From the NCBI GenBank assembly GCA_050734425.1, contig JBOHUL010000064.1:16683-80682 (forward strand): a stretch of DNA of 64,000 bases, in the 5' to 3' direction. The position numbers and the translations under genes were made by a program. The DNA comes from Candidatus Dormibacteria bacterium (lineage in GTDB: Bacteria > Chloroflexota > Dormibacteria > Aeolococcales > Bog-877). Shown piece after piece: positions 1,115 to 56,355 of this stretch. A model generated the notes under the pieces. That model searched no databases. It worked only from the letters and a program-made list of their open reading frames with translations, and was not told the origin of the DNA. Each line of letters begins with the position of its first letter. The stretch's first letter is position 1.

Positions 1115-1319
1115 TGCGGCTGCGAGTATCTCCAGACCGAACAAGCCCGCGGGCCTCCAAACCCTTGCACCGAAGCGACCGCCCTGTGGCCGCCATGTTA
1201 ACGTCGCGCTGAGATCGCCGATCCCACGCTCTGACTCGCCGCCATTCCCAGGGGGCGCGACACTCCGGTCGGCTCCAGGGGGAGGCCTTGGCCCCCGCCG
1301 GGGCCAGCGGGTGGCAGGC

Positions 1320-1616
1320 ACGGCTGCTTTTGGCGGCCCCCACACCCTGGTGCTGGACGAAGCCACCTCGATCCTCGACCCTCGCTCCGCCCGGGCACCA
1401 GGAGCGCTTGCCGGGCAAGGCGCTGGAGGGCAGGACGGTGATCAGCGTCTCCCATCGCCGGGGCAGACTGCAGCCGCCGACCTGGTCGTGATGCTCAACG
1501 GGGAGCGGGTGGGTTCGCACCACCAGCTACTGGGGGAAGGCGGCCGCTACGCCGATCTCTGGCGCGCCGACGGAGGGGAGATGGACGACACTTCGGCAGG
1601 GGGAGGCCAACCCTAG
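1320..1616 (+). pseudogene. Remnant of ABC transporter ATP-binding domain C-terminus (Walker B and H-loop), frameshifted
   Basis: One frame reads ...HTLVLDEATSILD... (Walker B) and ...LNGERVGSHHQLLGEGGRYADLW (typical ABC exporter C-terminus). A second frame (1288..1491) carries GRTVISVSHRRG (H-loop). No N-terminal half is present. Confidence 0.4.
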
Positions 1617-1666
1617 CCGTGCCTCTGCCGCGCGTGGGCAGGACCCAAACGGGTATATAGGGGCGT

Positions 1667-2590: not shown

Positions 2591-2601
2591 GCGGTCCCGC
2601 C

Positions 2602-3177
2602 TTGGGATTCCTCGATTCCCTGATCGGGCGCACCAAACTTCCCAAGTCCAACGAGGACAAGATCTTCGCCATCGGCACGGCCGCGGTCGGCCTGGAGGCG
2701 TCCGCTTCCCTGAGCCCCGCCGGTCGGGTGGGGGTGGTGTTCAAGTCACTGCCCCCGGGCCGCTTCGACCAGCTGATCCAGGACACGGTGCAGATGCTCC
2801 AGATCAAGGACAGCACCAGTCCCGATGACCCCCTCAAGGTCAAGGACGTCAGGGACGAGCTGGGCTACGAGTGGCTGATTGTCGACGGAGACGACTTCGA
2901 CGGCCTGGTCGCCGCGCTCCACGGGGTGGCGCTGGGCTTGGAGGAGGAGGGGCTGGGCGGCTGTCTCTTGGCGGCGGTCTTCCCCTTTCTCCAGCGGGAC
3001 CGGCGGGTCTACTTCATCTACGGCTACAAGCAGGGCACCTTCTACCCCTTCGTCCCCAGCGGCGACCGCCAGCGCGACAACGCCGCCGAACTCGACCTGG
3101 CCACCAGGGCCAAGGAGGACCTGCCCATCGAGCCCAATCTCAGTTCCTGGTTCCCGCTCTGGGGGGTGCCGGTCTAG
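2602..3177 (+). CDS. Hypothetical cytoplasmic protein, possibly PspA-associated, immediately after htpX and convergent with pspA paralog 2
   Basis: 191-aa ORF, 12 bp after htpX; I recognise no domain. Its location between htpX and the second pspA suggests co-function (inference). Confidence 0.45.
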   Translation: MGFLDSLIGRTKLPKSNEDKIFAIGTAAVGLEASASLSPAGRVGVVFKSLPPGRFDQLIQDTVQMLQIKDSTSPDDPLKVKDVRDELGYEWLIVDGDDFDGLVAALHGVALGLEEEGLGGCLLAAVFPFLQRDRRVYFIYGYKQGTFYPFVPSGDRQRDNAAELDLATRAKEDLPIEPNLSSWFPLWGVPV

Positions 3178-3188
3178 ATGGACCGGGG

Positions 3189-4289
3189 TCAGGAGGCCTG
3201 GGCGCTGGCCTCCACGACTGTGCCGCCATCGGACATGAGCTTGGTCGCCTCCTCCAGGGTCATGTCCTCTGAGGGCAGGACCACGTCGGAGGGCAGCAGC
3301 GAATCGTTGGGCAGCTTGCTGCCGTGGGCGCGGACGAAGTTGAGCATGGCGCCGAGGGCGCCGGTGTAGGCACCCTGGTCCTGGGAGTCGATCGCCTTGC
3401 CCAGGGCGTTGTCCAAGGGCTCCAACTGGGGGCGCTCCGCGATGCTGAGCCGGTATTGGTCCTCGCCTGAGATCCGAACCACCACGCTCGGGGCGCCGCC
3501 GTTGCCGGCTGGGGCCTGGGGGCTGGCCGCCTGGCTCTCTTCGGCGGCCGATTGGTTGGAGGAGGCGATCCGAGGTGCCGACTCGGGCGCTCCCAGCACC
3601 TCCTGCTTCAGCGCCGCCAGCTGGGCGTCGACCTGGGAGTCGGTGAGGTGCCCCTGCAGCTGGCGGTCGATGTCGTCGCCGGAGTTCAGCCCGATGGTGT
3701 CCAGGGTGCCGCTGTCCATCAGGGAGTCGATCGCCTGGGAGCGTGCCTGCATCTGCTGGGTCTTGTCCTGGGCCCGCTCGACCATGAGGTTGACGTCGGT
3801 CATCTGCTCCGAGAGGCCGGTCACGGCCTCTCCGATCTGGGTCGAGGCCTTGGCTGCCGAGTACTGGGCCTTGAGGGTCTCGCGCTGGGTCTTGAATGAA
3901 GCGACCTTGGCGGTCAGCTTCTGGGCGGTGACCTCCAGCTTCTGCTCTTGGTCTTTGAGCTGCTGGATCTGAGCCGTCATCGCGTCAGCCTGGGCCTTGG
4001 CATCCTGGGCCCGGGTCAAGGCCAGTCGCGCCAGGTCCTCACGGCCCTGCTGCAGCGCCAGCTTGGCCTGGGTCTGGCACTTGTCCTGCGTCTGCTGCAG
4101 CTGGGCCTGCTGCATCTCAAGGCGCTTCTCCGAAGTCAAAACCGTGGCCACGCTGGCCTTGACCTTGGAGAGAGCCTCCATCTGCTTCTGGTAGGAGAGG
4201 TCCAAGGCATCCATCGGGTTCTCGGCCCGGTCCATGACCTTGTTGGCCTTCTGCTGGAACAGGTCGGACATCCGGCGCATGATGCTCAT
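3189..4289 (-). CDS. pspA: PspA/IM30 family protein, paralog 2, with ~130-aa C-terminal extension
   Basis: MSIMRRMSDLFQQKANKVMDRAENPMDALDLSYQKQMEAL... is a classic PspA N-terminus and coiled coil. AAGGAG RBS lies upstream of the ATG. The C-terminal ~130 aa are non-coiled and of unknown fold. Confidence 0.8.
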   Translation of the reverse strand: MSIMRRMSDLFQQKANKVMDRAENPMDALDLSYQKQMEALSKVKASVATVLTSEKRLEMQQAQLQQTQDKCQTQAKLALQQGREDLARLALTRAQDAKAQADAMTAQIQQLKDQEQKLEVTAQKLTAKVASFKTQRETLKAQYSAAKASTQIGEAVTGLSEQMTDVNLMVERAQDKTQQMQARSQAIDSLMDSGTLDTIGLNSGDDIDRQLQGHLTDSQVDAQLAALKQEVLGAPESAPRIASSNQSAAEESQAASPQAPAGNGGAPSVVVRISGEDQYRLSIAERPQLEPLDNALGKAIDSQDQGAYTGALGAMLNFVRAHGSKLPNDSLLPSDVVLPSEDMTLEEATKLMSDGGTVVEASAQAS

Positions 4290-4404
4290 CTCGGTCTCCT
4301 TGCTCGGCGGTGGCGGCCCCGCGCCCCCAGCGGCCCAGCCCCGATCTTAGCGGCTGATCGAGCTCAACTCTGCCACATTAGTTGATGTCCTGCGAGGGCG
4401 TCGG

Positions 4405-5465: not shown

Positions 5466-5911
5466 CTAGCTGTACCTCCCACGTAGGTTGTTGCCACGAG
5501 TCACTGGAGGGAGCCTGCCAACCGCGGTGTGGGCGCGGTGATAGTTGTAGCGGTGCACCCAGGCGGGGAGCACGCGGGTCCGGCTGCTGTTGCTGATGTA
5601 GGGGCGGAAGTAAGCCCACTCCTCGAGCAGGGGGCGGTTGAAGCGCTCCACGTTGCCGTTCAACTGGGGGTGGTAGCGGGGGGTGAGCAGCTGGCGGATC
5701 CGGAGCTCGGACAGTGCGTGCCGGAAGTCGTTGGAGATCCGGTAGGCCTTGGCGTTGTCGGACATCACCGCCCCCACCTGGATCCCCAGCCCCTGGTAGA
5801 ACTGCTACGCCCGGCGCAGGCAAGCCGCGCACGGGGTTGCTCGCGGTGCGCCTCCACGTAGGCCAGCTGGCGGTGGTCGTCCACGGCGCAGTGCAGGTAG
5901 TCGTAGCCCTG
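5466..5911 (-). mobile_element. IS481-family (rve/DDE) transposase, C-terminal half only, frameshifted; decayed IS
   Basis: Two minus-strand frames: ...GYDYLHCAVDDHRQLAYVEAH... and ...AKAYRISNDF...YHPQLNGNVERFNRPLLEEWAYFRPYISNSSRTRVLPAWVHRYNYHRAHTAVGRLPPVTRGNNLRGRYS match the integrase-core C-terminus of IS481 transposases. N-terminal HTH and the first part of the core are absent. Confidence 0.6.
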
Positions 5912-5977: not shown

Positions 5978-6376
5978 GTGGCAAGAACCGGAGCCCTGCT
6001 GCGCCCACTCATCGGGGAGGCGGCCTTCCGGGCCTGCGTCCGCACCCACTGGCTGCTGATCGCCCTGGCCGTGGCGGTGCCTCTGGGCCTGGCGGCGGCG
6101 TTTGCTGCCGCCCTCAGCTCCGGTGCTCTCCGGAGCGTGCTGGCGCTGGTCTGGCTGCTCTGCGCCCTCGCCTGTGTCATCGCCGCCTTCCTAGGTCTCA
6201 TCTGGAGCCGGCGGGCCAACGCCCTCACCAGCGACCGGCTCACCTCGCAGCTGGATACCCGCTTCGGATTCGGGGCGGGGGCGCGAGGCTCGATGTGGCG
6301 TCGTGGAAGCGCCAGATCGATCGGGCGCTGCGCCGCTATCGCCAGACCAACCGTCGCAGATGGCCTCACCAGGTAA
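5978..6376 (+). pseudogene. Small 2-TM membrane protein gene (paralog A), frameshifted; paralogous to 12246..12626
   Basis: GTG-initiated frame reads ...LLRPLIGEAAFRACVRTHW plus two hydrophobic helices. The C-terminal homology (RLDVASWKRQIDRALRRYRQTNRRRW) continues in a different frame (6295..), indicating a frameshift near 6290. The protein-level match to the intact minus-strand paralog is clear. Confidence 0.4.
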
Positions 6377-6529
6377 CGGGGACGGCCAGGCAGATCAGCG
6401 GCGGCCGGGGCAAGCGGGCGCAACCTCGCGCGCGACCCGGCCTGGGCACTTTGGCACATCTCGATCTGTCGTGCTCTGGCGATCCCTGCCCGCCCGCGCT
6501 AACCTGCCCTAGACATTTGAGGTCTGTCT

Positions 6530-9500
6530 TTGATTTGTAGCAATTGTCAGGCGGAGACGACTCCTGGGCGGCGGTTCTGCGGGCAGTGCGGAGCGCCCCT
6601 GGCTCATGCTTGTGCCGCCTGCGGGGCGGCCAACCCGCCGGGGGCGAGGTTCTGCGAAGAGTGCGGCACGTCGCTCCAGCCGGTCCCGGCGGCGACTCCC
6701 GCGCCCGCTGCGGCAGCACCGCCACCGGCGCCTGGCAGCGAGACCATCGAGCTCAGATTCGTCTCGGTCGCGTTCGCCGACCTGGTCGGGTTCACCACCC
6801 TCGCCGAGGGTCGGGACCCGGAGGAGGTCCGCGAGCTCCTGACACGCTATTTTGAAGTCGCCAGGGAGCTGGTCAGCCGTTACGGGGGGACGGTGGAGAA
6901 GTTCATCGGGGACGCGGTCATGGCGGTCTGGGGAACCCCCACCGCCCAGGAGGACGATGCCGAGCGCGCGGTCCGCGCCTCCCTGGACCTGGTCGAGGCG
7001 GTCGGCCAGCTGGGGCTGCAGATGGGCTTGCCCGGGCTCTCGGCCCGAGCGGGGGTGCTCAGCGGCACGGCTGCCGTGACCGTCGGGGCCAGGGGCCAGG
7101 GGATGGTAGCCGGGGACCTGGTCAACACCGCCTCGCGGATCCAGGGCCAGGGTGCACCGGGACAGGTCCTGGTCGGGGAGACCACCAAGCGGGCTACCGA
7201 GGCGGCGATCGCCTACCAGGAGCTGGGGACGAAGAGCCTCAAGGGCAAGGGCGAGCCGACCGCGCTCTTCCAGGCGCTGCGGGTGGTGGCGGGGCTCGGA
7301 GGGATGCTCAAGTCGCAGCGCCTGGAAGCCCCTTTCGTGGGCCGTGAACGAGAGCTCCGCCTGGTCAAGGAGGTCTTCCACACCTCGACCGAGGAGCGCC
7401 GCGCCCACCTGGTGCAGGTGACTGGGGTGGCCGGGATCGGCAAGTCCCGGCTCGGTTGGGAGTTCTTCAAGTACATCGACGGGCTCCAGTCCGGCTACCT
7501 GTGGCATCGGGGCCGCTGCCTGGCCTACGGCCAGGGCATCACCTACTTCGCGCTCGCCGAGATGGTGCGCGGGCGGCTCGGGATCGTGGAGCAGGACCCG
7601 CCCGAGGTCGAGCAGGCCAAGCTCACCGCGACCCTGGAGCAGTACCTCCACGACGCCGACGACCGCGCCTTCGTCGCTCCCCGCTTGGCCCACTTGATCG
7701 GGTTGGCGGAGCGAACCGCCCCCGACCAGCAGGATCTCTTCGCCGCCTGGCGGCTCTTCTTCGAACGCATGGCCGAGGACAGCCCGGTGGTTCTGGTCTT
7801 CGAGGACATGCAGTGGGCGGACTCGGCCCTGCTGGAGTTCATCACCTACCTGATGGAGTGGTCCCGGAACTTCCCCCTGTTCGTCATGAGCCTGGTCCGC
7901 CCTGAGACGGCTCAGGCGGGCCTCGGGGCAAGCACTCGAAACGCCACCCTGATCCACCTGGAGCCGCTGTCCCCCGGGGCGATGGAGCAACTGCTCACGG
8001 GACTGGTCCCGGGCATCCCCCGCCTTCTGGCGGAGCGGATCCAGCAGCGGGCCCAGGGCGTGCCCCTCTATGCGGTGGAGACGGTGCGGATGCTCCTCGA
8101 CCGGGGCTTGCTGGTCGAAGACGGAGCCGCCTACCGGCCGACGGCCGAAATCGAGACGCTGGAGGTCCCGGACACTCTCCAGGCGCTGATCCTGGCCCGG
8201 CTCGACGGGATGGAGCCCGCGGAGAGACAACTGGTCCAGGAGGCTTCCGTGCTGGGTAAAACCTTCACCCTCGAGACCCTGGCCCGACTCTCGGGCGACA
8301 CCCACCAGGTAGTTGGGGCGGTGCTGCATGCGCTGGTGGCCAAGGAGGTCCTGGCGATCCAGAGCGATCCCCGCTCTCCCGAGCGGGGCCGCTACGGCTT
8401 TCTCCAGGACCTGGTGCGGACGGTCGCCTACGAGACACTCTCCAAGCGGGATCGGCGGTCCAAGCACCTGGCGGTGGCGACCGTCCTGGAGGCTGCCGCC
8501 GGCGACTCCGAGGATCTGGTCGAGGAGCTGGCCTCGCACTATCTGCAGGCCTGGCGCCTGGACCCGGACTCTGACGACGGCGGCGAGATCCGAAGGAAGG
8601 CCCGACGGCTTCTGGTCCGAACCGCCGAGCGGGCCGCCCAGCGGGCGGCGGTCGATGAGGCCCACGCCGCCTTCCAACGGGCCTCAGAACTGAGCGAGTC
8701 GCCGCTGGAGCGCGGTGCCCTGACTGAGCGGGCGGGGCAGATGGCGGAGCAGAGCGGCCAGCTGGACGAGGCGGACCAGCTCTACGAGGAGGCGACGCGG
8801 CTGCTCAAGGAGGGAGGCGACCACCGCGGGGCCGCCAGAGCCCAGGCGCGGCTGGCGGGGTCGGAGTACCAGCGGCTGCAGGTGGAGCAGGCGACCAAGC
8901 GAATGCAGCATGCGTACGCGGAGATGGCGACAGACGATCCCGACCCCGACGTCGCCGTGGTCACGGCCCAGCTCGGTCGCTTCCTGGCGCTTCAGGGCGA
9001 TGCCGAAAAGGCAGCACCGCTGCTGGAGCGAGCCCTGCACCTGGCGGAGCTGCTGGAGCTGCCTGACGTCTACTCTCAGGCCTTGAGCAGCAAGGCGGTC
9101 GTTCTCATGGGCCAAGACCGGATGGACGAGGCAGTGGTGCTCCTGCGGCGGGCCCTAGAGGTGGCCCTGGAGCACAGCCTCACCTTGGCCGCCAACCGCG
9201 CCTACAACAACCTGGGAACGGTGCTGGAGGCCCAGGAGCGCTACTCGGAGTTGGTCACCATGCTCACCCAGCAACTTGAGTTCGCCCGTAGGGTCGGCGA
9301 CCGCCCCTGGGAGCTCAGCACCCTGCTGGCCCATGTGACACCGTTGATGGGGCTCGGGCAATGGGACGAGGCCGTGGCCATGGTCGCGGAGGCCCGGGCG
9401 ACCGAACTGCCCTTGGTGGCATTCGCATGGAGCCAACTGGTGAGCCTGGTTAGCCTCCACTGCCACAGGGGCGAACTGGACGAGGCCGAGAGGGTTTTGG

Positions 9501-10078
9501 AGGCGACGCGATCTGCCGCGGAGGCCGACGAGTGGCAGTCCCGCCTGGCCTATTCCGCGGAGAGGGGTGTCGCCCTGCGCGCCCACGGTCGGATCGAGGA
9601 GGCGCTGATGGCGGCGGAAGGGGTCCTGGCGAGCAAGAGCAAAGTGGGCATGGGGATTACCAATCCGATCTTGAAAAGGGCGCTGGTGCTGGCCGGCGAC
9701 TGTGCCATCGACCTTGCAGACCCCGACCGCGCATCAAGGATCCTGGCAACCGCCCGCGACGCCCTGCCAGGCCAGGTCACCCCTTGGCTGAGGGGTCATC
9801 TGGCCAGGCTCTCGGCCAGGGAGTGCGCCCTGCATGGCGACACCCAGCAGGTGGAGCCGCTGTTCACAGCGGCGGAAGCCGGGTTCGGGGCCATCGACGA
9901 CCCCTTCGACCTGGCGGCTACCCGGGTCGAGCATGCCGAGTGGTTGGTCGAGCAGGCAAGGTCAGACGAGGCCCTCCAGCTCCTCGCCGAAGCACGCACG
10001 ACCCTGGAGCGTCTGGGCGCCCAGCCGTGGCTGGAAAGAGTCAGGCAGATCAGGATCGAAGAACGCCTACCCGCGTGA
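6530..10078 (+). CDS. Multidomain signalling protein: N-terminal double zinc ribbon, class III adenylate/guanylate cyclase catalytic domain, STAND/AAA NTPase (P-loop GVAGIGKS), C-terminal TPR-like helical repeats; no HTH
   Basis: CSNCQ...CGQCG...CAACG...CEECG (four CxxC). Cyclase motifs FADLVGFT, FIGDAVMAVWG, GDLVNTASRIQ (metal Asp pair plus Asn/Arg transition-state residues). Walker A VTGVAGIGKSRL, Walker B-like VLVFEDMQWAD. About 600 aa of alpha-helical repeats. TTG start in a locally AT-rich patch. Confidence 0.8.
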   Translation: MICSNCQAETTPGRRFCGQCGAPLAHACAACGAANPPGARFCEECGTSLQPVPAATPAPAAAAPPPAPGSETIELRFVSVAFADLVGFTTLAEGRDPEEVRELLTRYFEVARELVSRYGGTVEKFIGDAVMAVWGTPTAQEDDAERAVRASLDLVEAVGQLGLQMGLPGLSARAGVLSGTAAVTVGARGQGMVAGDLVNTASRIQGQGAPGQVLVGETTKRATEAAIAYQELGTKSLKGKGEPTALFQALRVVAGLGGMLKSQRLEAPFVGRERELRLVKEVFHTSTEERRAHLVQVTGVAGIGKSRLGWEFFKYIDGLQSGYLWHRGRCLAYGQGITYFALAEMVRGRLGIVEQDPPEVEQAKLTATLEQYLHDADDRAFVAPRLAHLIGLAERTAPDQQDLFAAWRLFFERMAEDSPVVLVFEDMQWADSALLEFITYLMEWSRNFPLFVMSLVRPETAQAGLGASTRNATLIHLEPLSPGAMEQLLTGLVPGIPRLLAERIQQRAQGVPLYAVETVRMLLDRGLLVEDGAAYRPTAEIETLEVPDTLQALILARLDGMEPAERQLVQEASVLGKTFTLETLARLSGDTHQVVGAVLHALVAKEVLAIQSDPRSPERGRYGFLQDLVRTVAYETLSKRDRRSKHLAVATVLEAAAGDSEDLVEELASHYLQAWRLDPDSDDGGEIRRKARRLLVRTAERAAQRAAVDEAHAAFQRASELSESPLERGALTERAGQMAEQSGQLDEADQLYEEATRLLKEGGDHRGAARAQARLAGSEYQRLQVEQATKRMQHAYAEMATDDPDPDVAVVTAQLGRFLALQGDAEKAAPLLERALHLAELLELPDVYSQALSSKAVVLMGQDRMDEAVVLLRRALEVALEHSLTLAANRAYNNLGTVLEAQERYSELVTMLTQQLEFARRVGDRPWELSTLLAHVTPLMGLGQWDEAVAMVAEARATELPLVAFAWSQLVSLVSLHCHRGELDEAERVLEATRSAAEADEWQSRLAYSAERGVALRAHGRIEEALMAAEGVLASKSKVGMGITNPILKRALVLAGDCAIDLADPDRASRILATARDALPGQVTPWLRGHLARLSARECALHGDTQQVEPLFTAAEAGFGAIDDPFDLAATRVEHAEWLVEQARSDEALQLLAEARTTLERLGAQPWLERVRQIRIEERLPA

Positions 10079-31272: not shown

Positions 31273-31913
31273 TGACCAAGGCGCTCCTGGCCCGCAAGCT
31301 GGGGATGACCCAGATCTTCCTGGAGGACGGTCGCTGCTGTCCGGTGACCGTGCTTCAGGCCGGGCCGTGCCCCGTCGTCCAGCTCAAGACCGAGGCCAAG
31401 GAGGGCTATGACGCGGTCCAGATCGCGTTTGCGCCCATGGCCAAGCGGGTGAGCAAGCCCCGCCGAGGCCACTTCGAGGTGGCCGACCTTGAACCCCACC
31501 GCCACCTGGCCGAGGTGAGGGGTGAGAGCGAGGCGGCCGTGGGCGACGTGCTCACGGTGGGTACCTTCCAGGCGGGGGCGTTCCTGGACGTGATCGGGAC
31601 CAGCAAGGGCAAGGGATTCGCCGGGCCGCACAAGCGCCACCACTTCGGCCGGGGGCCCGTCACCCACGGCAGCCACAACATACGACAGCCGGGCTCGGTC
31701 GGCTCGGTCGATGCCGCCAGGACCTGGCGCGGTCTGCGGATGGCGGGCCATCTGGGAGCCCAGCGGAGCACGGTCAGGCGCCTGCAACTGGTCCGGGTCG
31801 ACGAGGAGCGCAACCTGCTCTTGGTCAAAGGGGCGGTGCCGGGCCAGCGCCAGGGCGTGGTGCTGGTGCGGGAGTCGCCGCCGCGGCGGCGCCGCCAGGG
31901 GGCCCACCGCTGA
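31272..31913 (+). CDS. rplC: 50S ribosomal protein L3
   Basis: L3 family; TGATG overlap with rpsJ. Confidence 0.95.
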   Translation: MTKALLARKLGMTQIFLEDGRCCPVTVLQAGPCPVVQLKTEAKEGYDAVQIAFAPMAKRVSKPRRGHFEVADLEPHRHLAEVRGESEAAVGDVLTVGTFQAGAFLDVIGTSKGKGFAGPHKRHHFGRGPVTHGSHNIRQPGSVGSVDAARTWRGLRMAGHLGAQRSTVRRLQLVRVDEERNLLLVKGAVPGQRQGVVLVRESPPRRRRQGAHR

Positions 31914-32536
31914 TGGCCCACGCGGTGCTGCGGGGGCCGGAAGGCCAGGAGCAGGGCACAGTCGAGCTGCCGGAGACCGTCTTCGGCGGTGCCGTCCACC
32001 ATGCCGCCCTGCACCAGGCCCTGCTGCGCCAGGCGGCCGGGGCGCGTCAGGGCACCCATGCCACCAAGACCCGGGGCCAGGTCCGCGGCGGGGGGCGCAA
32101 ACCCTACCGCCAGAAGGGGACGGGGCGGGCACGCCAGGGTTCGATCCGGGCGCCCCAGTGGCGCGGCGGCGGCACGGTCTTCGGCCCCACGCCCCACGGC
32201 CATGCCCAGGCCATGCCCCGCAAGCAGCGTCGGCTGGCGTTGCGCTCGGCGCTGGCGGCCAAGGCCGAGGAGGGTGCGATTCAGGTGGTCGAGGAGCTGG
32301 AGTACGAAGGGCCGAAGACGCGGAGGCTGGCGGCCTTCCTGGATCAGGCGGGGGCGGCCCGGCGGGTGCTGCTGGTGCTGCGGGAGCGCTCTGACAACGT
32401 CGAGCTCTCGGCCCGCAACATCCCCCAGCTCAAGGTGATCCTGAGCCACAACCTGGGTGTCCGCGACCTGCTGACCGCCGAGACCCTGATCTTCACCAGA
32501 GCGGCGCTGGAGCAGGTGGGGGAGCACCTCTCGTGA
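31913..32536 (+). CDS. rplD: 50S ribosomal protein L4
   Basis: L4 family. Confidence 0.9.
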
Positions 32537-32835
32537 AGGAGCCCGCCTCGGTTTTGATCCGCCCCGTCATCAGCGAGAAGTCGTACGCCGGCATGGCCAA
32601 GCAGCGCTACGTCTTCCAGGTTTCGCCCCGGGCCAACAAGATCGAGGTGAAGCAGGCGATCGAGTCCGCCTTCAAGGTCAAGGCGGTCGCGGTCAACGTC
32701 ATGGTGGTCAAGGGCAAGACCAGGACCCGGATGCGCCGGGGCGGCCGGATCGTGGGGCGCAGCCGCGACTGGAAAAAGGCGGTGGTGACCCTGGCCCCGG
32801 GCGAGAGCATCGCCAACCTCTTCGAGGGAGTCTGA
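32533..32835 (+). CDS. rplW: 50S ribosomal protein L23
   Basis: L23 family. Confidence 0.9.
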
Positions 32836-37824: not shown

Positions 37825-38220
37825 GTGCTGAGCGATCCGATTGCCGACATGTTGACGCGGGTCCGCAACGCCAACCTGGCCGACCGTGACCGGGTTGAGA
37901 TGCCGGCCAGCAAGGTGAAGGCGGAGATCGCCCGCGTCCTGCGGGACGAGGGCTTCATCAAGGACTTCGGGACCCTCGAGGCCGGCGGTCACCGAAGCCT
38001 GTGGTTGGAGCTCAAGCCCAAGACCGCGCTGGGTCGGCCGCTGAGCGGACTGCGCCGGGTCAGCCGCCCAGGCCTGCGGGTCTACTCTGGGAGCCAGTCC
38101 ATCCCCAGGGTTCTGGGGGGGCTGGGGGTGGCGGTGGTGTCCACCTCCCAGGGGATCATGAGCGGCCAGAAGGCACGTCAGCAGCGGCTGGGTGGCGAAG
38201 TCCTGGCCGAGGTCTGGTAG
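37825..38220 (+). CDS. rpsH: 30S ribosomal protein S8
   Basis: [16 protein letters not shown]... Confidence 0.95.
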
Positions 38221-38228
38221 GGCTCGCC

Positions 38229-38777
38229 GTGTCACGCATCGGCAGGACCGCGATCCCCCTTCCCCAAGGGGTGACCGTCAAGCTGGAGTGGCCTTCGGTG
38301 GCGGTTACGGGACCGATGGGCGAGCTCCGCCGGGAGCTGCCCCGGGCCATGACCGTCCGCCAGGAGGATGGCCTCCTCTTGGTGGAGCGGCCCAGCGACT
38401 CCGCTCCCCATCGCTCCCTCCACGGCCTCACCCGCACCCTGCTGGCCAACATGGTCCAGGGGGTCACGACCGGCTTTCGCAAGGAGCTGGAGCTGCAGGG
38501 GGTGGGGTACCGGGCCTCGATCCAGGCTGGCGATCTGCAGCTGGCCCTGGGCTACTCCCACCCGGTCCGCGTGACCCCACCGCCGGGGATCCGGATCGAG
38601 GTGCCCGAGCCAACCCGGATCGCGGTCTCGGGCAGCGACAAGGAGCTGGTGGGCCAGACCGCGGCCCGGATCCGCGCCGCTCGCAAGCCCGAGCCGTACA
38701 AGGGCAAGGGCGTGCGCTATCGCGGCGAGGTGATCCGGCGCAAGGCGGGCAAGAGCGGCAAGCAGGTCAAGGCATAG
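38229..38777 (+). CDS. rplF: 50S ribosomal protein L6
   Basis: GTG start; (M)[19 protein letters not shown].... The tool ORF 38001.. is over-extended. Confidence 0.9.
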
Positions 38778-38779
38778 CC

Positions 38780-39136
38780 ATGGTCCCTTCTCGGCGGACT
38801 TCGGCGCGGCAGCACCGGCACCGGCGGGTGAGGGGTCGGGTGGTGGGCTCCGGCCTCAGGCCCCGGCTCTGTGTATTTCGCAGCCTGCACCACCTCTACG
38901 CCCAGGTGGTGGACGACGACCGGGGCAACACTCTGGTCGCCGCCAGCACCACCGAGCCTGGCCTCGGTGCCAAGGGTGCCAACCGGGCCAGCGCCGCCAT
39001 CGTCGGCAAGACCGTGGGCGAGCGAGCGCGGGCGGCGGGAATCAGCCGGGTGGTCTTCGACCGCGGGGGCTATCTGTACCATGGGCGGGTCCAGGCGCTG
39101 GCAGAGGCCGCGCGGGCCGCCGGTCTGGAGTTCTGA
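38780..39136 (+). CDS. rplR: 50S ribosomal protein L18
   Basis: [21 protein letters not shown]...; the tool ORF 38192.. is over-extended. Confidence 0.9.
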
Positions 39137-39140
39137 GATC

Positions 39141-39695
39141 GTGAGTACCAACATGTCGCGGCCCGACCGTGATGCCCGGGGCGAGCTTTCCGAGCGGGTG
39201 GTGAGCCTCAACCGGGTGGCCAAGGTGGTGAAGGGTGGCCGTCGCTTCTCCTTCAGCGCCCTGGTCGTCGTCGGCGACGGCGCCGGACGGGTGGGTGCCG
39301 GGCTGGGCAAGGCGGGGGAGGTGCCGGAGGCCATCCGCAAGGGGGTCGACGACGCCAAGAAGCACATGATCCACGTGCCCATGGTTGGGCGGACCATCCC
39401 CCACCGCGTGCTCCGCAAGGAGGGCGCGGCCAAGGTTCTGCTTCGGCCGGCCTCGCCCGGGACCGGGGTGATCTCGGGAGGAGCCATGCGGGCGGTGGTG
39501 GAGCTGGCCGGGATCAAGGACATCCTGACCAAGTCCCTGGGGACTGACAATCCCATCAACACGGTCCGGGCAACGATGGGGGCCCTGCGCGAGCTCCGCA
39601 CCGCCGAGACCGTGGCCCAGATGCGCGGAGTCGCGGTGGCGGAACTGGGCATGCGCCGGGCCCCCGCGACCCCGGGAGAGGACCAGGGTGGCTGA
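39141..39695 (+). CDS. rpsE: 30S ribosomal protein S5
   Basis: ...[40 protein letters not shown].... GTG start after GGAG; an ATG at 39153 is an alternative. Confidence 0.9.
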
Positions 39696-39927
39696 GGAGC
39701 CGGGGGGGCTGCGGGTGACCTGGGTCAAGAGCGCCATCGGCTACGGCCAGGACCAGAAGCGGACGATTGAGGCCCTGGGGCTGCGGCGGCTGGGCCAGAC
39801 GGCTCAGCATCGAGACTCGCCCGCGATCCGGGGAATGGTCCGCGCCGTCGCCCATCTGGTCAAGGTGGAGGAGACGGAGTCCAGCCCGGAGAAGAGCGGG
39901 CAGCGTCAGCGCAGAGGGCGGCGGTGA
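39688..39927 (+). CDS. rpmD: 50S ribosomal protein L30 (with C-terminal extension)
   Basis: L30 core [31 protein letters not shown]... plus a ~20-aa basic tail. Confidence 0.8.
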
Positions 39928-51176: not shown

Positions 51177-53009
51177 GTGTGCGGCATCATCGGCTATCTG
51201 GGACCGCGGTCGGCCGCGCCGCTGCTGCTCGACAGCCTGCAGCGGCTGGAGTACCGCGGCTACGACTCGGCCGGGGTCGTGGTCCTCAAAGGGGACGGGA
51301 CCGCGACCGCGGTCAGGTCACCGGGGAAGGTCGAGGCGCTCCTGGCCTCGGCCGGCGTCGCGAGCCTCGAGGGCCAGGTCGGGATGGGTCACACCCGCTG
51401 GGCCACCCACGGCCGCCCATCCGAGGCCAACGCTCATCCCCAACGGGACTGCAGCGGCCGCTTCTTCGTCATCCACAACGGCATCATCGAGAACTTCGCT
51501 CAGCTGCGGCGGGAGTTGGTGGAGCTGGGCCACCGCTTCATCTCCGAGACGGACACCGAGGTTCTGCCCCACCTGATCGAGGAGTACTACCAGGGCGACC
51601 TGGTGGCGGCGACCCGGCGGGCGCTGGCCCGGCTCCAGGGGGCGTTCGCGGTGGTTGTTTTGAGCTCGACCGACCCAGACACCCTGATCGGAGCCAGGCT
51701 CAACGCCCCCCTGGTGGTCGGCGTCGGCCGCGACGAGTGGTTCCTCAGCTCCGACCTCACCGCCATCATCCCCTACACCAGGCAGGCGCTGGTGCTGGGG
51801 GAGGGGGACATGGCGGTGCTGAGCCCGGTGGGGCCGGTGGTGAGCTCGATCGTCGATGGGAGTGAGTCCGTGCCCCGGGTGGTGCGGGTCGACTGGGACG
51901 TGATCCAGGCGGAGCGCGGCGGCTTCCCCAGCTTCATGGCCAAGGAGATCCAAGAGCAGCCGGCGGCGCTGGAGAACGCCCTCCGGGGGAGGCTCCTCGG
52001 AGACGGCACGGTCGAGTTCCCCGAGTGGGATCTGGACGATGGCGCGCTGGCCTCGTTCGAGCGAATCCAGATCGTCGGCACCGGCACCGCCTACATCGCG
52101 GGCTTGTTGACCCGCTATGCCATCGAGGATTTGGCCCAGCTGCCGGTGGTGGTCGAGACCAGCTCCGAGTGGCGCTACCGACCTCAGCCCAGCGACGGCA
52201 AGACCCTGTTCTTGGCCATCTCTCAGTCGGGTGAGACTGCGGACACCCTGGCGGCGGCCCGCCTGGCCCGGGCTCAGCGCAGCCACCTGCTGGCTCTGAC
52301 CAACGTGGTCGGCAGCACCCTGGCCCTCGAGGCCGACTCGGTCATCAACCTCCACGCCGGACCCGAGATCTGCGTCGTCGCCACCAAGACGTTCGTCAAT
52401 CAGGTGGCCTGCGGGCTGCTGCTGGCCCTGCGCCTAGCGCAGGCCCGGGGGCGGATGAGTCAGGCCGACCGCGGCGAGATCGCCCAGGCCCTCCGGATGG
52501 TGCCCCAAGTGCAGCGCCAGATCTTAGCCCGAGAAGAGGGGATCGCGGCGATGGGCCGCTGGCTCTCGCAGGCCGGCTCCGCCCTGTACGTGGGCCGGGG
52601 CTACAACTATCCGGCGGCGATGGAGGCGGCGCTGAAGCTGAAGGAGGTCTCCTACGTCCACGCTGAGGCCTTGCCCGCGGGCGAGTTGAAGCACGGGCCC
52701 ATCGCCCTGCTGGATGAGCGGATGCCGGTCGTCGCCTTCGCGACCGAGTCCAAGACCCGGGAGAAGGTGCGCAGCAACGTCCAGGAGTCGCGGGCCCGTC
52801 AGAGCCCAATCCTGGCGATAGTGAATGACGGCGACACCACCCTGGAGGGTGTTGCCGATCACCTGCTGCCGGTGCCCCGGCTGCCGGAGCCGGTGTCGCC
52901 GCTGGCCACGGCCTTGGTGGGGCAGCTGCTTGCGTACCACGCGGCGCTCAAGAAGGGGCTGGATGTCGACCGCCCCCGGAACCTGGCCAAATCAGTCACA
53001 GTCGAGTGA
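51177..53009 (+). CDS. glmS: Glutamine--fructose-6-phosphate aminotransferase
   Basis: MCGIIGYLG... N-terminal Cys amidotransferase domain plus two SIS domains; C-terminus ...KSVTVE. Confidence 0.95.
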   Translation: MCGIIGYLGPRSAAPLLLDSLQRLEYRGYDSAGVVVLKGDGTATAVRSPGKVEALLASAGVASLEGQVGMGHTRWATHGRPSEANAHPQRDCSGRFFVIHNGIIENFAQLRRELVELGHRFISETDTEVLPHLIEEYYQGDLVAATRRALARLQGAFAVVVLSSTDPDTLIGARLNAPLVVGVGRDEWFLSSDLTAIIPYTRQALVLGEGDMAVLSPVGPVVSSIVDGSESVPRVVRVDWDVIQAERGGFPSFMAKEIQEQPAALENALRGRLLGDGTVEFPEWDLDDGALASFERIQIVGTGTAYIAGLLTRYAIEDLAQLPVVVETSSEWRYRPQPSDGKTLFLAISQSGETADTLAAARLARAQRSHLLALTNVVGSTLALEADSVINLHAGPEICVVATKTFVNQVACGLLLALRLAQARGRMSQADRGEIAQALRMVPQVQRQILAREEGIAAMGRWLSQAGSALYVGRGYNYPAAMEAALKLKEVSYVHAEALPAGELKHGPIALLDERMPVVAFATESKTREKVRSNVQESRARQSPILAIVNDGDTTLEGVADHLLPVPRLPEPVSPLATALVGQLLAYHAALKKGLDVDRPRNLAKSVTVE

Positions 53010-54289
53010 CCGGCGGGACCGAAGCAGGTTCTCCCCACCGACTGGGGGTCGGGGTCGACGTCAGTTCGGTGGAGCGCGTCGCCGAGCTGGTCCGGAGCCA
53101 GCCTCGGTTCGTGGAGAAGTACTTCACCGCCGCGGAGGCCGCCTACTGCCTTGGCCGACCCGAGCGTCTGACAGCCCGCTGGGCGGCCAAGGAGGCGGTG
53201 CGCAAGCTGTTCGGCAGCCTGGGCTGGAGGATTCCCCTCTATGTAGAGATCTCGGTGCGGCGTCGCCCTGGGGGGGCGCCGGAGGCGCTCATCCGGGGCG
53301 AGCCGGTGGCCGGTCTGGAGCTCAGCCTGAGCCATGACGCCGGGGTCGGGGTGGCCGTGGCGGTGATGGCGAGCGAGGCCCTGCGGCAGCCCCTCTCAGT
53401 GCCCTGGCCCGCGGATCTGGCCCTGCCGGTGCGCCCGGTGGACGGCCACAAGGGCACCTTCGGCACGGTCTTGGTCATCGCTGGCAGCCGATCCTTCCCG
53501 GGAGCCGCAGTCCTCTGCGCCCTGGGAGCTCTCAGGGGAGGTGCGGGAAAGGTTCAGGCCGTGACCCTGGACCCGGCCAGCGCCGCCTTCCCTCCGGAGT
53601 TGATCCGGCTGGCGGTCAGCGACGGCGGAGAGGGCCTGGGGGCGGCTGCGATCATCCAGGTCCGGCCCCAGCTGCAGGCGGCCACGGCGGTGGTTTGCGG
53701 TCCGGGGCTCGGACTGTCGGCGGCGACGGGTGAGCTGCTCTCAGAGTTGTTCCGGGCAGCTGAACAGATGTCCTTCAAGCTGGTGCTCGACGCCGACGCC
53801 CTCAATGCCTGCGCCCGCGAGCGTCAGCTCCTGGAGCGGATTCCCCAGGGGGCGGTGCTCACACCCCATCCCCTGGAGGCGGCCCGGCTGGCGGGCATGG
53901 AGTTGGCACAGATCCAAGCCGACCGGGAGGGGCAAGCCCGGGCCCTGGCCCAGTCCCTGGGAACGGTGCTGGTGCTCAAGGGCGCGGGGACGGTGGTGGC
54001 GGACCCCCGGGGGAAGTGCTGGACCGATCAACATGCCACTGCTGCCCTGGCGGCAGGGGGCAGCGGCGACGTGCTCGCGGGGCTGGTCGGGGCACTTCTG
54101 GCCCAGGGGATGGACGCGCCGGGTGGCGCCCGGGCGGCGGTCTACCTCCATGGCGAGGCAGGGACCCGGTTGGGACTGCGGCGGGGCAGGGCGGGCATCC
54201 TCGCCAGTGAGGTTGCCTCGGAACTCGTGGAGACGGCCGAGGCGCTGCGCCGGACTCAGCCGGGCCGGGGCGGAGTCACACCGCCTTGA
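53006..54289 (+). CDS. acpS: Fusion protein: holo-ACP synthase (AcpS, N-terminal ~125 aa) plus ADP-dependent NAD(P)H-hydrate dehydratase (YjeF_C / Nnr dehydratase domain)
   Basis: N-terminus GVGVDVSSVERVAE...FTAAEAAYC...RWAAKEAVRKLFG...LSLSHDAGVGVAV is AcpS. The C-terminus VDGHKGTFGTVLVIAGSRSFPGAAVLCALGALRGGAGKV...LTPHPLE...VLKGAGTVVA...GGSGDVLAG is YjeF_C. No YjeF_N epimerase domain is present. Confidence 0.8.
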   Translation: MTGGTEAGSPHRLGVGVDVSSVERVAELVRSQPRFVEKYFTAAEAAYCLGRPERLTARWAAKEAVRKLFGSLGWRIPLYVEISVRRRPGGAPEALIRGEPVAGLELSLSHDAGVGVAVAVMASEALRQPLSVPWPADLALPVRPVDGHKGTFGTVLVIAGSRSFPGAAVLCALGALRGGAGKVQAVTLDPASAAFPPELIRLAVSDGGEGLGAAAIIQVRPQLQAATAVVCGPGLGLSAATGELLSELFRAAEQMSFKLVLDADALNACARERQLLERIPQGAVLTPHPLEAARLAGMELAQIQADREGQARALAQSLGTVLVLKGAGTVVADPRGKCWTDQHATAALAAGGSGDVLAGLVGALLAQGMDAPGGARAAVYLHGEAGTRLGLRRGRAGILASEVASELVETAEALRRTQPGRGGVTPP

Positions 54290-55449
54290 GCTCACCGGGC
54301 AGTGAGGCACCGGTGTTCCGGTCGCCCCAGCGGCCCACCTGGATCGAGATCGACGAATCCGCCCTGGGACGGAACGTGGCGGAGGTGGTGCGAGAGCTGG
54401 GGGGCGTGGCACTGATGGCCGTGGTCAAGGCGGATGGCTACGGCCATGGGGCGGCCACCGTGGCTCGGGTGGCGGTTGGCAACGGGGCCGCCTGGGTGGG
54501 GACGGCCACCGTGGCCGAGGCCTCGCAACTGCGGCGGCAGGGGGTCACGGCGCCGATCCTGGTGCTGGGCTACACCCCCCCGGAGGAGGTCCTGGCGGCG
54601 GTCGCCGCCAATCTCGCCATCACCGTCTTCGACCTCGCGGTCCTGGAGGCACTGGAGCGGGCCGGTACCGCCCTTGGGCAGCGCGCCTGCGCCCACCTCG
54701 AGGTGGACACCGGCATGAGCCGTCTCGGGGTGGCACCGGAGCAGGTCGCGACCTTCGCCGTCGCGGCAAGCCGCTGCGCCCACGTGGACCTGGAGGGGTG
54801 CTACACCCACTTCCGCCACGGCGCCGATCCTCTAGCCACCCGGGAGCAGCTCGCCCGGTTGCTCCGGGCCCTCGACGCGTCTCGTGGCGCGGGTGTTGAG
54901 TTCCGCCTGCGCCATGCCGCCAACAGTGCCGCGTGGAAGACGGTGCCCGAGGCGCGACTGGACCTGGTGCGGTTGGGGATCGAGCTCCTGGGCCTGACCA
55001 CCCCCGATGGCCGGCGCCGGGAGCCGGTCCTGAGTCTCCGCACCACAGTGGCCCAGGTCCGCGAGGTGGAGGCCGGGACCTTTGTCGGATATGAGGGGGG
55101 GTTCCAGGCTCCCCGAGCCATGCGCATCGCCACCATTCCAATCGGCTACGGCGACGGCTTCCGGCGCACCCCGAGCAACTGGGGCATGGTGCTCATTGGG
55201 GGCCGGGCGCGGCCGCTGGTCGGGCACGTCTGCATGGACCTGGCGATGGTCGATGTGAGCGACCCGCCCGAGGTCGGGGCCAGCGACGTGGTCACGCTGC
55301 TGGGCCGCGATGGCGACGCCCGACTCAGGGCCGAGACCGTGGCCCAGAGGCTCGGGACCATCAACTACGAGGTGACCACCGCGCTCTCCGCCCGGGTGCC
55401 GCGGGAGTCCCTCAGTGCTGGGATCGGGCTGGCTAAGGGCCCGGCCTAG
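54286..55449 (+). CDS. alr: Alanine racemase
   Basis: ...AVVKADGYGHGA... PLP-Lys motif; TIM barrel plus C-terminal beta domain. Confidence 0.9.
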   Translation: MSSPGSEAPVFRSPQRPTWIEIDESALGRNVAEVVRELGGVALMAVVKADGYGHGAATVARVAVGNGAAWVGTATVAEASQLRRQGVTAPILVLGYTPPEEVLAAVAANLAITVFDLAVLEALERAGTALGQRACAHLEVDTGMSRLGVAPEQVATFAVAASRCAHVDLEGCYTHFRHGADPLATREQLARLLRALDASRGAGVEFRLRHAANSAAWKTVPEARLDLVRLGIELLGLTTPDGRRREPVLSLRTTVAQVREVEAGTFVGYEGGFQAPRAMRIATIPIGYGDGFRRTPSNWGMVLIGGRARPLVGHVCMDLAMVDVSDPPEVGASDVVTLLGRDGDARLRAETVAQRLGTINYEVTTALSARVPRESLSAGIGLAKGPA

Positions 55450-55458
55450 AATCAAGTC

Positions 55459-56355
55459 ATGAGTTCGGCCTCGGGGGGGTCGCCCCGGTCCCCTTTGGGC
55501 CGAGCGCGACTCTCACGGCTACGGGAGGCCCGCCTCTACCTGGTCACCGACGATGCCACGCCCGCGGACGGGCTCCCAGAGCTGGTGGCGGCGGCGGCTC
55601 GGGGCGGGGCGGACCTGGTTCAGCTCCGGCGCAAGGGCGTCGAGCCCGCGCGGTTGCGCGGGCTGGCCGAGGACTGTCTCAGGCGGGCGCGAGAGGGTGG
55701 TGCCCTGTTTCTGGTGGACGACCACGTCGAGCTGGCTCTGCAGATCGGTGCCGACGGAGTCCACCTGGGCCAGCAGGACCAGGAGCCGGCGCGGGCCCGC
55801 GCCCGGCTGGGGCCGGACGCGATCCTGGGCGTCTCAACCCACGCCCTGCCCCAGCCTCGGTCGGCCCTGGAGAGCGGCGCCGACTACATCTCGGCCGGAC
55901 CGGTCTTCTCAACTCCCACCAAGCCGGGGCGGGAGGCCGTGGGCTTTGACTATGTCTCCGCCGCCGCCACCAGCGTTCCCCTGCCCCTGGTCGCAATCGG
56001 GGGTCTGGCGGCGGACAGTGCGGGCGAGGCGATCCGGCGGGGTGCAGACATGATCGGGGTGGTGCGCTGCATCTGCCAGGCGACGGACCCCGAGGCGGCG
56101 GCCAGGGAGCTGCGCCGCGCCATCGGCCACGCCACCCCCTGGGACTGGCTCGAGGTCAACGGCGAGAGGCGCCGGTGCCCGGGGGGCAGCCGGGGGGCGG
56201 ACCTCCTTCGACAGCTGGGGCTCGGCCTCGAAGGGGTGGTGGTGGAGTTGAATGGTGAGATGCTGACTCGCGAGGGCCTGGAGACGACGCGTCTGCTGGC
56301 CGGCGACCGGTTGGAGGTGGTGCACCTGGTTGGTGGAGGCATGGGCCATGGGTGA
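55459..56355 (+). CDS. thiE: Thiamine-phosphate synthase ThiE fused in-frame to sulfur-carrier ThiS (C-terminal ~70 aa ending ...VGGGMGHG)
   Basis: ThiE runs LYLVTDD... to ...ATDPEAAARELRRAI. It continues without stop or start codon into WLEVNGERRRCPGG...LTREGLETTRLLAGDRLEVVHLVGGG (ThiS beta-grasp with terminal GG), then a 5-aa tail. Confidence 0.75.
   Translation: MSSASGGSPRSPLGRARLSRLREARLYLVTDDATPADGLPELVAAAARGGADLVQLRRKGVEPARLRGLAEDCLRRAREGGALFLVDDHVELALQIGADGVHLGQQDQEPARARARLGPDAILGVSTHALPQPRSALESGADYISAGPVFSTPTKPGREAVGFDYVSAAATSVPLPLVAIGGLAADSAGEAIRRGADMIGVVRCICQATDPEAAARELRRAIGHATPWDWLEVNGERRRCPGGSRGADLLRQLGLGLEGVVVELNGEMLTREGLETTRLLAGDRLEVVHLVGGGMGHG

Follow-up and report, generated by a model that had tools for sequence, protein, structure and literature searches.

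Organization of the fused gene

The gene considered here, designated acpS::nnrD, occupies positions 53006..54289 on the forward strand of the window (the whole 64-kb stretch of DNA that was analysed) and encodes a protein of 427 aa. The ORF list and a reading of the sequence showed a complete ORF with a GTG start and without an internal stop codon; because no start codon lies between the upstream in-frame stop and position 53006, the N terminus of the protein cannot extend further. Its operon neighbours are glmS upstream (51177..53009, +) and the alanine racemase gene alr downstream (54286..55449, +), each overlapping the fused gene by 4 nt: the GTG start shares GTGA with the glmS stop codon, and the TGA stop shares TTGA with the TTG start of alr. 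A scan for promoters and terminators between 49000 and 61200 gave no signal beyond shuffled expectation. A 100 % identical NCBI protein (P0001), present on three contigs and named 'NAD(P)H-hydrate dehydratase [Candidatus Dormibacteria bacterium]', derives from a Candidatus Dormibacteria MAG, and the actinobacterial, 'Streptomyces-type' frame in which the initial annotation had placed the gene does not hold, the host, a soil bacterium, belonging to Candidatus Dormibacteria (Dormiibacterota).

The N-terminal part of the protein (aa 13-125; 53042..53380, +) is an AcpS-type (group I) 4'-phosphopantetheinyl transferase domain, recognized from Pfam and NCBIfam matches and from alignments. The match to ACPS (PF01648; aa 14-99) scores 41.4 bits against a cut-off of 25, and the NCBIfam AcpS models span aa 13-121; the domain model TIGR00556 is passed marginally (46.6 vs 45.35 bits), and the scores lie below the equivalog cut-offs of TIGR00516 (37 vs 59.8 bits) and NF000832 (53.4 vs 107 bits). 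Judged by these scores the AcpS domain is divergent, which accounts for PGAP naming the fused protein only as a dehydratase. Residues D18, R24, E63, K67 and H110 are invariant in 15 homologues and align to D8, R14, E58, K62 and H105 of Bacillus subtilis AcpS (PDB 1F7L/1F80); the residues that mark membership of the family, namely the counterparts of the Mg2+ ligands Asp8 and Glu58 together with those of Lys62 and His105, are thus all found in one domain of ~120 aa. Over aa 13-125 the protein shares 38 % identity with the free-standing AcpS encoded in a Dehalococcoidia locus (L041).

The C-terminal part (aa 137-424; 53414..54277, +) is a YjeF_C, or NAD(P)HX dehydratase, domain according to Pfam, NCBIfam, alignments and AlphaFold. 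It matches Carb_kinase/YjeF_C (PF01256) over aa 155-406 with 166.5 bits (cut-off 27) and yjeF_cterm (TIGR00196) over aa 136-409 with 181.3 bits (cut-off 129.85), and the motifs HKG (148-150), GPGLG (232-236), DADAL (262-266), TPHPxE (286-291), LKG (324-326) and GGxGDVLxG (351-359), aligned to Thermotoga maritima Tm0922 (2AX3) and B. subtilis YxkO (3RPH, 1KYH), are invariant in the homologues. The same Dehalococcoidia locus encodes an Nnr to which aa ~125-422 are 39 % identical, with a match that begins immediately behind the YjeF_N domain of that Nnr. Homologues of 44-63 % identity retain without exception the catalytic and ligand residues of the two domains, and the AlphaFold monomer model has a mean pLDDT of 87.7.

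The two domains are joined by a Pro-rich linker (aa 126-136, LRQPLSVPWPA; 53381..53413, +), delimited by the homologue alignment and the AlphaFold model, which differs in length and sequence between homologues and is modelled with lower confidence; the spacer between the domain boundaries amounts to ~11-15 residues. From about aa 130 onwards the linker aligns to the inter-domain linker between YjeF_N and YjeF_C of canonical Nnr. The linker string that had been quoted earlier (...MASEALRQPLSVPWPADLALPVRPVDGHKG...) is contained in the translation of 53006..54289, and at the junction this sequence contains neither a stop codon nor a start codon with a ribosome-binding site. A frameshift or stop at the junction is ruled out by the uninterrupted ORF and by the retention of one frame in nearly all related loci (see below). 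With a single ORF and both Pfam domains above cut-off, the in-frame AcpS-YjeF_C fusion reported in the initial annotation is genuine.

That annotation had also described the epimerase (YjeF_N) domain as missing from both the protein and the window, and the Pfam scans and the six-frame search agree with it. Pfam gave no match to PF03853 (YjeF_N) in the fused protein, nor in 71 ORFs selected by GC3 to cover the window with rpoB, rpoC, groES and groEL left out. A purpose-built YjeF_N HMM found nothing at E<=1e-3 in the six-frame translation of the 64-kb window, a search that also covers two stretches of ribosomal-protein genes (31409-32566 and 38159-39724) where the GC3 choice of frame was probably wrong. 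No YjeF_N was found within +-6 kb of the fusion in the 40 related fused loci. A YjeF_N domain is ~170 residues long, so the spacer of ~11-15 residues cannot conceal one, and this possibility, which it had been proposed to check, is ruled out. The 80-aa linker of one Clostridia-type protein (P0137) likewise gave no signal of a YjeF_N remnant when searched with filters off.

Distribution of fused and separate genes

A survey across taxa, as had been suggested, was run on the 80 best GTDB species-representative loci, and 40 of these carry the fusion, with YjeF_C beginning 21-64 nt after ACPS. The fusion is phylum-wide in Dormibacterota and recurs in a large family from Clostridia, so that the earlier view of it as a peculiarity of this genome has to be given up. 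Wherever the contig extends far enough, glmS lies upstream (38/38 fused loci), usually preceded by ybbR. Downstream, thi genes and alr are found in most fused loci, alr following directly in 28 of the 40. In public protein data the fused architecture is represented by at least 52 clusters at 50 % identity.

Both domains are encoded in one ORF in 38 of the 40 fused loci. The other two (L039 and L053), where ACPS and YjeF_C lie in different frames, could be taken as a sign that a separate acpS and a stand-alone yjeF_C had been merged by sequencing or assembly error; however, both come from long-read MAGs and each carries a single-base insertion, in one case within the conserved SLTHD codons and in the other in a C-run. 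One frame is kept in the other 38 species-level genomes, which come from many independent projects, and the clusters sharing the architecture and the uninterrupted junction also argue against an artefact, a reading that is effectively refuted.

The second large ACPS-Carb_kinase family was found in Clostridia, in the context acpS-ydcC-alr-mazEF; 'Clostridia bacterium' is here the NCBI organism name of two low-GC fused proteins from the homology search, and the proteins are named 'NAD(P)H-hydrate dehydratase [Clostridia bacterium]'. The YjeF_C domains of the Dormibacterota and Clostridia fusions are each nearer to canonical Nnr than to the other, and the Clostridia fusion therefore probably arose independently. 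A C-terminal extension in one protein (P0138), considered as a possible YjeF_C-Alr read-through, gave no match to Alr.

Among the 40 unfused loci, 20 contain a separate acpS no more than 2 kb upstream of a gene with Pfam-verified YjeF_N and YjeF_C domains, and in 17 the two genes directly adjoin. In the adjacent unfused pairs, 700-840 nt separate the end of ACPS from the start of YjeF_C. The order glmS-acpS-nnr occurs in a member of the Limnochordales (L067) and acpS-nnr-alr in Capillibacterium (L068), both unfused. Loci from Chloroflexota, Firmicutes, Myxococcota, Nitrospirota and Desulfobacterota bore out the statement of the initial annotation that other lineages keep acpS and nnr as neighbouring but separate genes.

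In trees of the concatenated domains, the fused proteins formed one clan relative to the acpS-linked unfused proteins in 50/50 bootstraps. In a simple neighbour-joining tree of all 80 YjeF_C domains, 6/60 bootstraps kept the fused set together as a clan, with long-branch attraction to proteobacterial sequences; the window protein grouped with L001-L009 on a long branch (60/60 bootstraps). Since the tree of 80 domains did not recover the fused set as one group, the case for a single origin draws on synteny, the junction and the restricted-taxon tree.

Proposed origin and function

Our favoured hypothesis, which we consider quite probable, is that the fused gene encodes two independent housekeeping enzymes in one polypeptide and was born of an in-frame deletion of ~0.7 kb in an ancestor of Dormibacterota. 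Because relatives carry a separate acpS just upstream of yjeF_N-yjeF_C, we infer that the Dormibacterota gene is best explained by a deletion. The ancestral arrangement would have been glmS-acpS followed by yjeF_N-yjeF_C-alr, and the deletion would have removed the acpS stop codon, a short intergenic gap and the YjeF_N module, thereby joining the C terminus of AcpS to the old linker between YjeF_N and YjeF_C. The fusion has the look of two adjacent housekeeping genes that simply merged, and it is also found in Clostridia; it is therefore only modestly unusual.

Because none of the catalytic residues varies in either domain, the fused protein most probably carries out both reactions, each independently of the other, as a bifunctional enzyme. 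With Mg2+ as cofactor, the N-terminal domain would load apo-ACP with the 4'-phosphopantetheine of CoA; the C-terminal domain would consume ADP, as its counterparts in other bacteria do, to turn (S)-NAD(P)HX back into NAD(P)H, and each active site would be expected to operate on its own. AcpS forms homotrimers whose active sites lie between subunits, and YxkO of B. subtilis forms tetramers; the presence of a trimer-forming and a tetramer-forming domain in one chain is a point against the view of two independent enzymes. The R epimer of NAD(P)HX may be handled by spontaneous epimerization or by an unlinked epimerase. The initial annotation offered a choice between loss of epimerization and an epimerase acting in trans, and thereby omitted the spontaneous equilibration of the R and S forms (PMC5938422): these interconvert with a t1/2 of about 40 min, NAD(P)HX levels are normal in epimerase-dead Escherichia coli, and a dehydratase without an epimerase was found in 168 surveyed genomes (PMC5938422).

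One alternative explanation is selection of the fusion for a functional coupling of its two activities, for example by tethering NADPH-hydrate repair to the machinery of ACP and fatty-acid synthesis, a heavy consumer of NADPH, or by AcpS taking over a former structural or assembly role of YjeF_N. Two distant lineages have this architecture, each in its own gene context (glmS-fusion-alr in Dormibacterota, fusion-ydcC-alr-mazEF in Clostridia), and the closer relationship of each YjeF_C to canonical Nnr suggests that the fusion recurred, which could hint at selection for coupling over a neutral merger. The adjacency of acpS and yjeF in seven phyla, possibly tied to NADPH use in lipid synthesis (PMC5938422), points the same way. 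However, co-transcribed neighbours readily fuse by deletion without a functional cause, the linker is short, variable and non-conserved, and no substrate is shared, AcpS releasing 3',5'-ADP and NAD(P)HX dehydratase consuming 5'-ADP; we regard this explanation as unlikely. Of the physical coupling proposed in the initial annotation, what stands is the trivial part, that both domains are in the same chain; nothing was found for catalytic coupling. A bolder proposal would be that, in at least two lineages, AcpS replaced the epimerase module of Nnr because of a real partnership with the dehydratase as a physically coupled unit, the epimerase being dispensable throughout the phylum. Such a unit, if real, could recruit NADPH-hydrate repair to fatty-acid synthesis or need AcpS for assembly of the dehydratase, and the partnership would underlie the acpS-yjeF association in the seven phyla; we hold this to be rather improbable.

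A change of function in one domain, whether YjeF_C acting on a substrate other than NAD(P)HX or AcpS serving as an inert scaffold, would be consistent with the long branch of the clade formed by the window protein and L001-L009 and with the failure of the AcpS domain to reach the equivalog cut-offs. It appears very improbable given that the family-defining motifs of YjeF_C and the Mg2+-, CoA- and ACP-contact residues of AcpS are all invariant, and that TIGR00196 is comfortably passed (181 vs 130 bits).

Significance and relation to known systems

The acpS-yjeF link has been noted before: in seven phyla, genes for holo-ACP synthase are found clustered with yjeF, an association described as of 'significance unclear', and a relation to NADPH use in lipid synthesis has been considered possible (PMC5938422). 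The fusion adds Rosetta-stone evidence for this link, which the literature has called unexplained. In the literature searched, with partial coverage of subscription papers, no earlier description of an AcpS-dehydratase fusion was found. Holo-ACP synthase is an essential enzyme, and the only AcpS recognizable in the region is part of a protein to which NCBI gives the name 'NAD(P)H-hydrate dehydratase'; when genomes of Dormibacterota and many Clostridia MAGs are reconstructed automatically, the enzyme will therefore be scored as absent. A phylum in which the dehydratase no longer has an epimerase fused to it also offers a natural test of the dispensability of NAD(P)HX epimerase. Finally, the fusion still adjoins alr in 28 of the 40 fused loci although YjeF_N is lacking there, which bears on a question raised in the literature, namely which of the two, epimerase or dehydratase, accounts for the alr/PLP association (PMC5938422).

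As a system the fusion is not new in kind, since the two enzymes, like the adjacency of their genes, were known already. A close parallel for the C-terminal half is Nnr (E. coli YjeF; T. maritima Tm0922, 2AX3), to which YjeF_C is homologous over its full length (129.7 bits, query aa 139-416); the inter-domain linker just ahead of 'LPxRPxxxHKG' is kept and the neighbourhood with acpS and alr is the same, both in the loci examined here and in those described previously (PMC5938422). The N-terminal partner is, however, AcpS and not the YjeF_N epimerase, and the score against the bifunctional Nnr equivalog NF007856 is 139 bits against a cut-off of 703, which places the protein outside that family. 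B. subtilis YxkO (1KYH, 3RPH) is likewise a dehydratase without a fused epimerase (123.8 bits, query aa 136-387, motifs conserved), but is a free protein of 276 aa, whereas the dehydratase domain described here bears an N-terminal AcpS. Like group I AcpS of B. subtilis (1F7L/1F7T/1F80), the transferase part is a domain of ~120 aa in which the Mg2+ ligands D8 and E58, K62, the ACP-contact residue R14 and H105 are conserved; it differs in its divergent sequence (39 bits, short of the equivalog cut-offs of NCBIfam) and in forming the N-terminal domain of a 427-aa chain in place of the usual free trimeric protein. The C-terminal PPT domain of the fungal fatty acid synthase alpha subunit (e.g. 2UV8, 6U5V), which matched query aa 13-120 weakly yet significantly, is also an AcpS-type transferase inside a larger enzyme, yet there the partner is its own client system (FAS/ACP) and here it is an unrelated metabolite-repair enzyme. 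The Clostridia proteins (e.g. P0133, P0323 and P0351) share the two-domain architecture, a length of ~400-415 aa and a nearby alr, and differ in their low-GC lineage and in their ydcC-alr-RHH/PemK context, which is that of acpS in B. subtilis.

The fused gene and its setting

The window gene at 53006-54289 (+ strand) is a single ORF of 427 aa with a GTG start and no internal stop. Pfam matched an ACPS domain at aa 14-99 (41.4 bits) and a Carb_kinase/YjeF_C domain at aa 155-406 (166.5 bits), and among the NCBIfam models yjeF_cterm scored 181 bits, against a cut-off of 130, over aa 136-409 and aa 13-121 were covered by several AcpS models, bearing out the in-frame fusion of AcpS to the NAD(P)HX dehydratase domain YjeF_C proposed in the initial annotation. 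Only ~11-15 residues separate the two domains, too few for the ~170 aa of the epimerase domain YjeF_N, and concealment of YjeF_N in the linker, which had been raised as a possible refutation, is thereby excluded. That YjeF_N is missing from the window as a whole was also confirmed: it was found neither in a Pfam scan of 71 GC3-supported window ORFs (rpoB, rpoC, groES and groEL omitted) nor in a search of all six window frames with an HMM made from ten Pfam-verified domains.

The GTG start shares bases with the glmS stop codon (GTGA), and the TGA stop with the TTG start of alr (TTGA). Such tight packing is typical of genes that would be co-translated from one operon, and a scan between glmS, the fusion and alr revealed no promoter- or terminator-like sites above chance. 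The stop-to-stop frame holding the fusion (52829-54286) has a GC3 of 0.79 and the neighbouring glmS, alr, thiES and thiG of 0.85-0.91, a minor compositional difference. The window covers a ribosomal-protein/rpoBC/S10-spc-alpha region, followed downstream by cdaA-ybbR-glmS-[fusion]-alr-thiE/S-thiG-thiL-tsaE-tsaB-rimI-tsaD-...-groES-groEL, an order like the one in other Terrabacteria. NCBI has a protein with 100% identity to it (P0001), from a 'Candidatus Dormibacteria bacterium' MAG. Of the best 120 relatives in the database, which extend to 43% identity, nearly all are 403-440 aa long and carry PF01648 and PF01256, those that are named being mostly Dormibacteria/Dormiibacterota; the actinobacterial framing of the initial annotation was therefore wrong.

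A number of other features of the window were noted. Two genes 3' of the acpS fusion, thiE and thiS form a single ORF (55459-56355, + strand; TMP-TENI and ThiS domains), a second fusion of neighbouring genes that is limited to the window's clade: it is present in the nine nearest species-level relatives (L001-L009), and the two genes are separate adjacent ORFs in other Dormibacterota clades (L015, L021, L023, L030, L035, L036). Two PspA/IM30 paralogues lie beside genes for the PspA-associated PspAA and PspAB domains and an M48 peptidase (332-4346, -/+ strands). A short ORF at 5469-5804 (- strand), in which an integrase core domain (rve_3) is represented by its C-terminal portion only, is probably an insertion sequence remnant, and 6521-10075 (+ strand) encodes a ~1185-aa protein with double zinc ribbons, an adenylate/guanylate cyclase domain, an AAA_16 ATPase and TPR repeats.

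Distribution and origin of the fusion

Fifteen aligned fused proteins were used to scan GTDB species-representative genomes, and the best 80 loci were annotated on six-frame translations with custom ACPS, YjeF_N and YjeF_C HMMs. The fused arrangement, with YjeF_C following ACPS after 21-64 nt, was present in 40 of the 80, and in 38 of these both domains lie within one ORF. In the remaining two, both from long-read (MFD) Dormibacterota MAGs, 1-nt insertions (L039:6254-6262 and L053:~6310-6320) put the two domains out of frame with each other: the conserved SLTHD codons are interrupted by an additional G in one case, and a C-run is lengthened by a C in the other. These shifts probably reflect homopolymer or indel errors in assembly and not a true division of the gene. 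The glmS gene is 5' of the fusion in all 38 fused loci whose contig reaches that far, abutting it in 36. Adjacency of alr is common, not obligatory, since it lies directly 3' in 28/40 and not in the other twelve (1.3 kb off in L009; absent within reach in L008, L011-L014, L016, L018, L020, L034, L039 and L053). No YjeF_N was detected by the custom HMM in six frames within 6 kb of the fusion in any of the 40. Some of the MAGs (L002, L010, L011, L014, L023-L026, L035 and the 'Chloroflexi CF_' loci) are labelled at NCBI as Acidiferrales, Angelobacter, Saccharimonadales, Acidoferrum, Bacillota, Verrucomicrobiia, Chloroflexia or Chloroflexi; all carry the Dormibacterota-type ybbR-glmS-fusion-alr locus and were treated as the same lineage on that ground, and the labels look unreliable. 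Both the architecture and its conservation are direct observations.

Among the 40 unfused loci, 38 encode a canonical YjeF_N-YjeF_C protein (Nnr; ten Pfam-verified). A separate acpS lies on the same strand within 2 kb 5' of nnr in 20 of the 40 and is immediately adjacent in 17, including eight Dehalococcoidia/Chloroflexota genomes, Phascolarctobacterium, Myxococcota, Nitrospirota and Desulfobacteraceae; the order is glmS-acpS-nnr in Limnochordales and acpS-nnr-alr in Capillibacterium. In adjacent pairs, 700-840 nt separate the end of ACPS from the start of YjeF_C. Residues 13-125 of the window fusion share 38% identity with the free-standing AcpS of a Dehalococcoidia locus (L041), and residues ~125-422 share 39% with the neighbouring Nnr from just past its YjeF_N ('GIGLP...ARALVPARPLTSHKGTFG'), so that the junction joins the AcpS C terminus to the old linker between the N and C domains. 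An in-frame deletion of ~0.7 kb that eliminated YjeF_N along with the intergenic gap and the stop codon of acpS would yield exactly the fused gene. The fused loci formed a single clan among the 59 loci with both acpS and YjeF_C (bootstraps: ACPS 46/50, YjeF_C 35/50, concatenated 50/50); a simple NJ tree of all 80 YjeF_C domains, where the window's clade was pulled toward long proteobacterial branches, did not recover this clan (6/60 bootstraps), so the argument for a putative single origin rests mainly on the common synteny and junction.

The fusion is limited neither to one genome nor to the Dormibacterota: it is phylum-wide and recurs in a large Clostridia family of the same ACPS-Carb_kinase architecture. 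When 1.84 billion cluster representatives were searched with a profile and the best 150 classed by custom HMMs, 52 proved to be ACPS-YjeF_C, 83 YjeF_N-YjeF_C and 15 YjeF_C-only proteins, with no three-domain protein among the 150; ~41 of the 52 have a low-GC amino-acid composition. With a Clostridia-type protein (P0133) as query, nearly all of the best 120 matches carried PF01648+PF01256, and the two that were named were both 'NAD(P)H-hydrate dehydratase [Clostridia bacterium]'. The Clostridia-type gene cluster is [fusion]-ydcC-alr-RHH/PemK (L081:6001-9084; L082:6001-9067), the same arrangement as in the Bacillus subtilis acpS neighbourhood, acpS-ydcC-alr-ndoAI-ndoA. The corrected YjeF_C distance that separates high-GC from low-GC fused proteins (1.36, which compositional bias could inflate) exceeds those from the fused groups to canonical Nnr (1.11 and 1.20), favouring two independent fusions, and the Dormibacterota and Clostridia genes are thus probably of separate origin.

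Predicted function and relation to known systems

Residues D18, R24, E63, K67 and H110 of the AcpS half are invariant across the 15 aligned fused proteins and correspond to D8, R14, E58, K62 and H105 of B. subtilis AcpS, the Mg2+, CoA and ACP contacts of that structure. Also invariant are the YjeF_C motifs HKG, GPGLG, DADAL, TPHPxE, LKG and GGxGDVLxG. The AlphaFold model (mean pLDDT 87.7) is confident for both domains, lower in the linker and disordered at both termini. Together, the invariant residues and the model lead us to predict that the enzyme is bifunctional and that its two active sites are independent, its activities being read from sequence; the dehydratase would presumably be ADP-dependent, and (R)-NAD(P)HX would presumably be dealt with by spontaneous epimerisation or by an unlinked epimerase.

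[quoted passage not shown] According to the same study, yjeF clusters in seven phyla with genes for holo-ACP synthase, a link whose 'significance is unclear', and in six with alr; the fusion lends Rosetta-stone support to this unexplained acpS-yjeF association, and offers a natural, putatively epimerase-less lineage for comparison. It is also of practical value to recognize that the fusion conceals acpS from annotation: the AcpS half scores under the NCBIfam equivalog cut-offs, so acpS would look absent in automated annotations, and P0001, P0405 and P0414 are named at NCBI only 'NAD(P)H-hydrate dehydratase'. Literature searches found no published description of an AcpS-dehydratase fusion; the architecture is already present in hundreds of public proteins with precomputed Pfam domains. 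It is a real, phylum-wide and recurrent merger of two known neighbouring housekeeping genes. Its YjeF_C motifs align to those of the dehydratase structures Tm0922 and YxkO, and AcpS, a trimer former, and YjeF_C, a tetramer former, are here joined in one chain; it is a new architectural variant of Nnr, not a new system.
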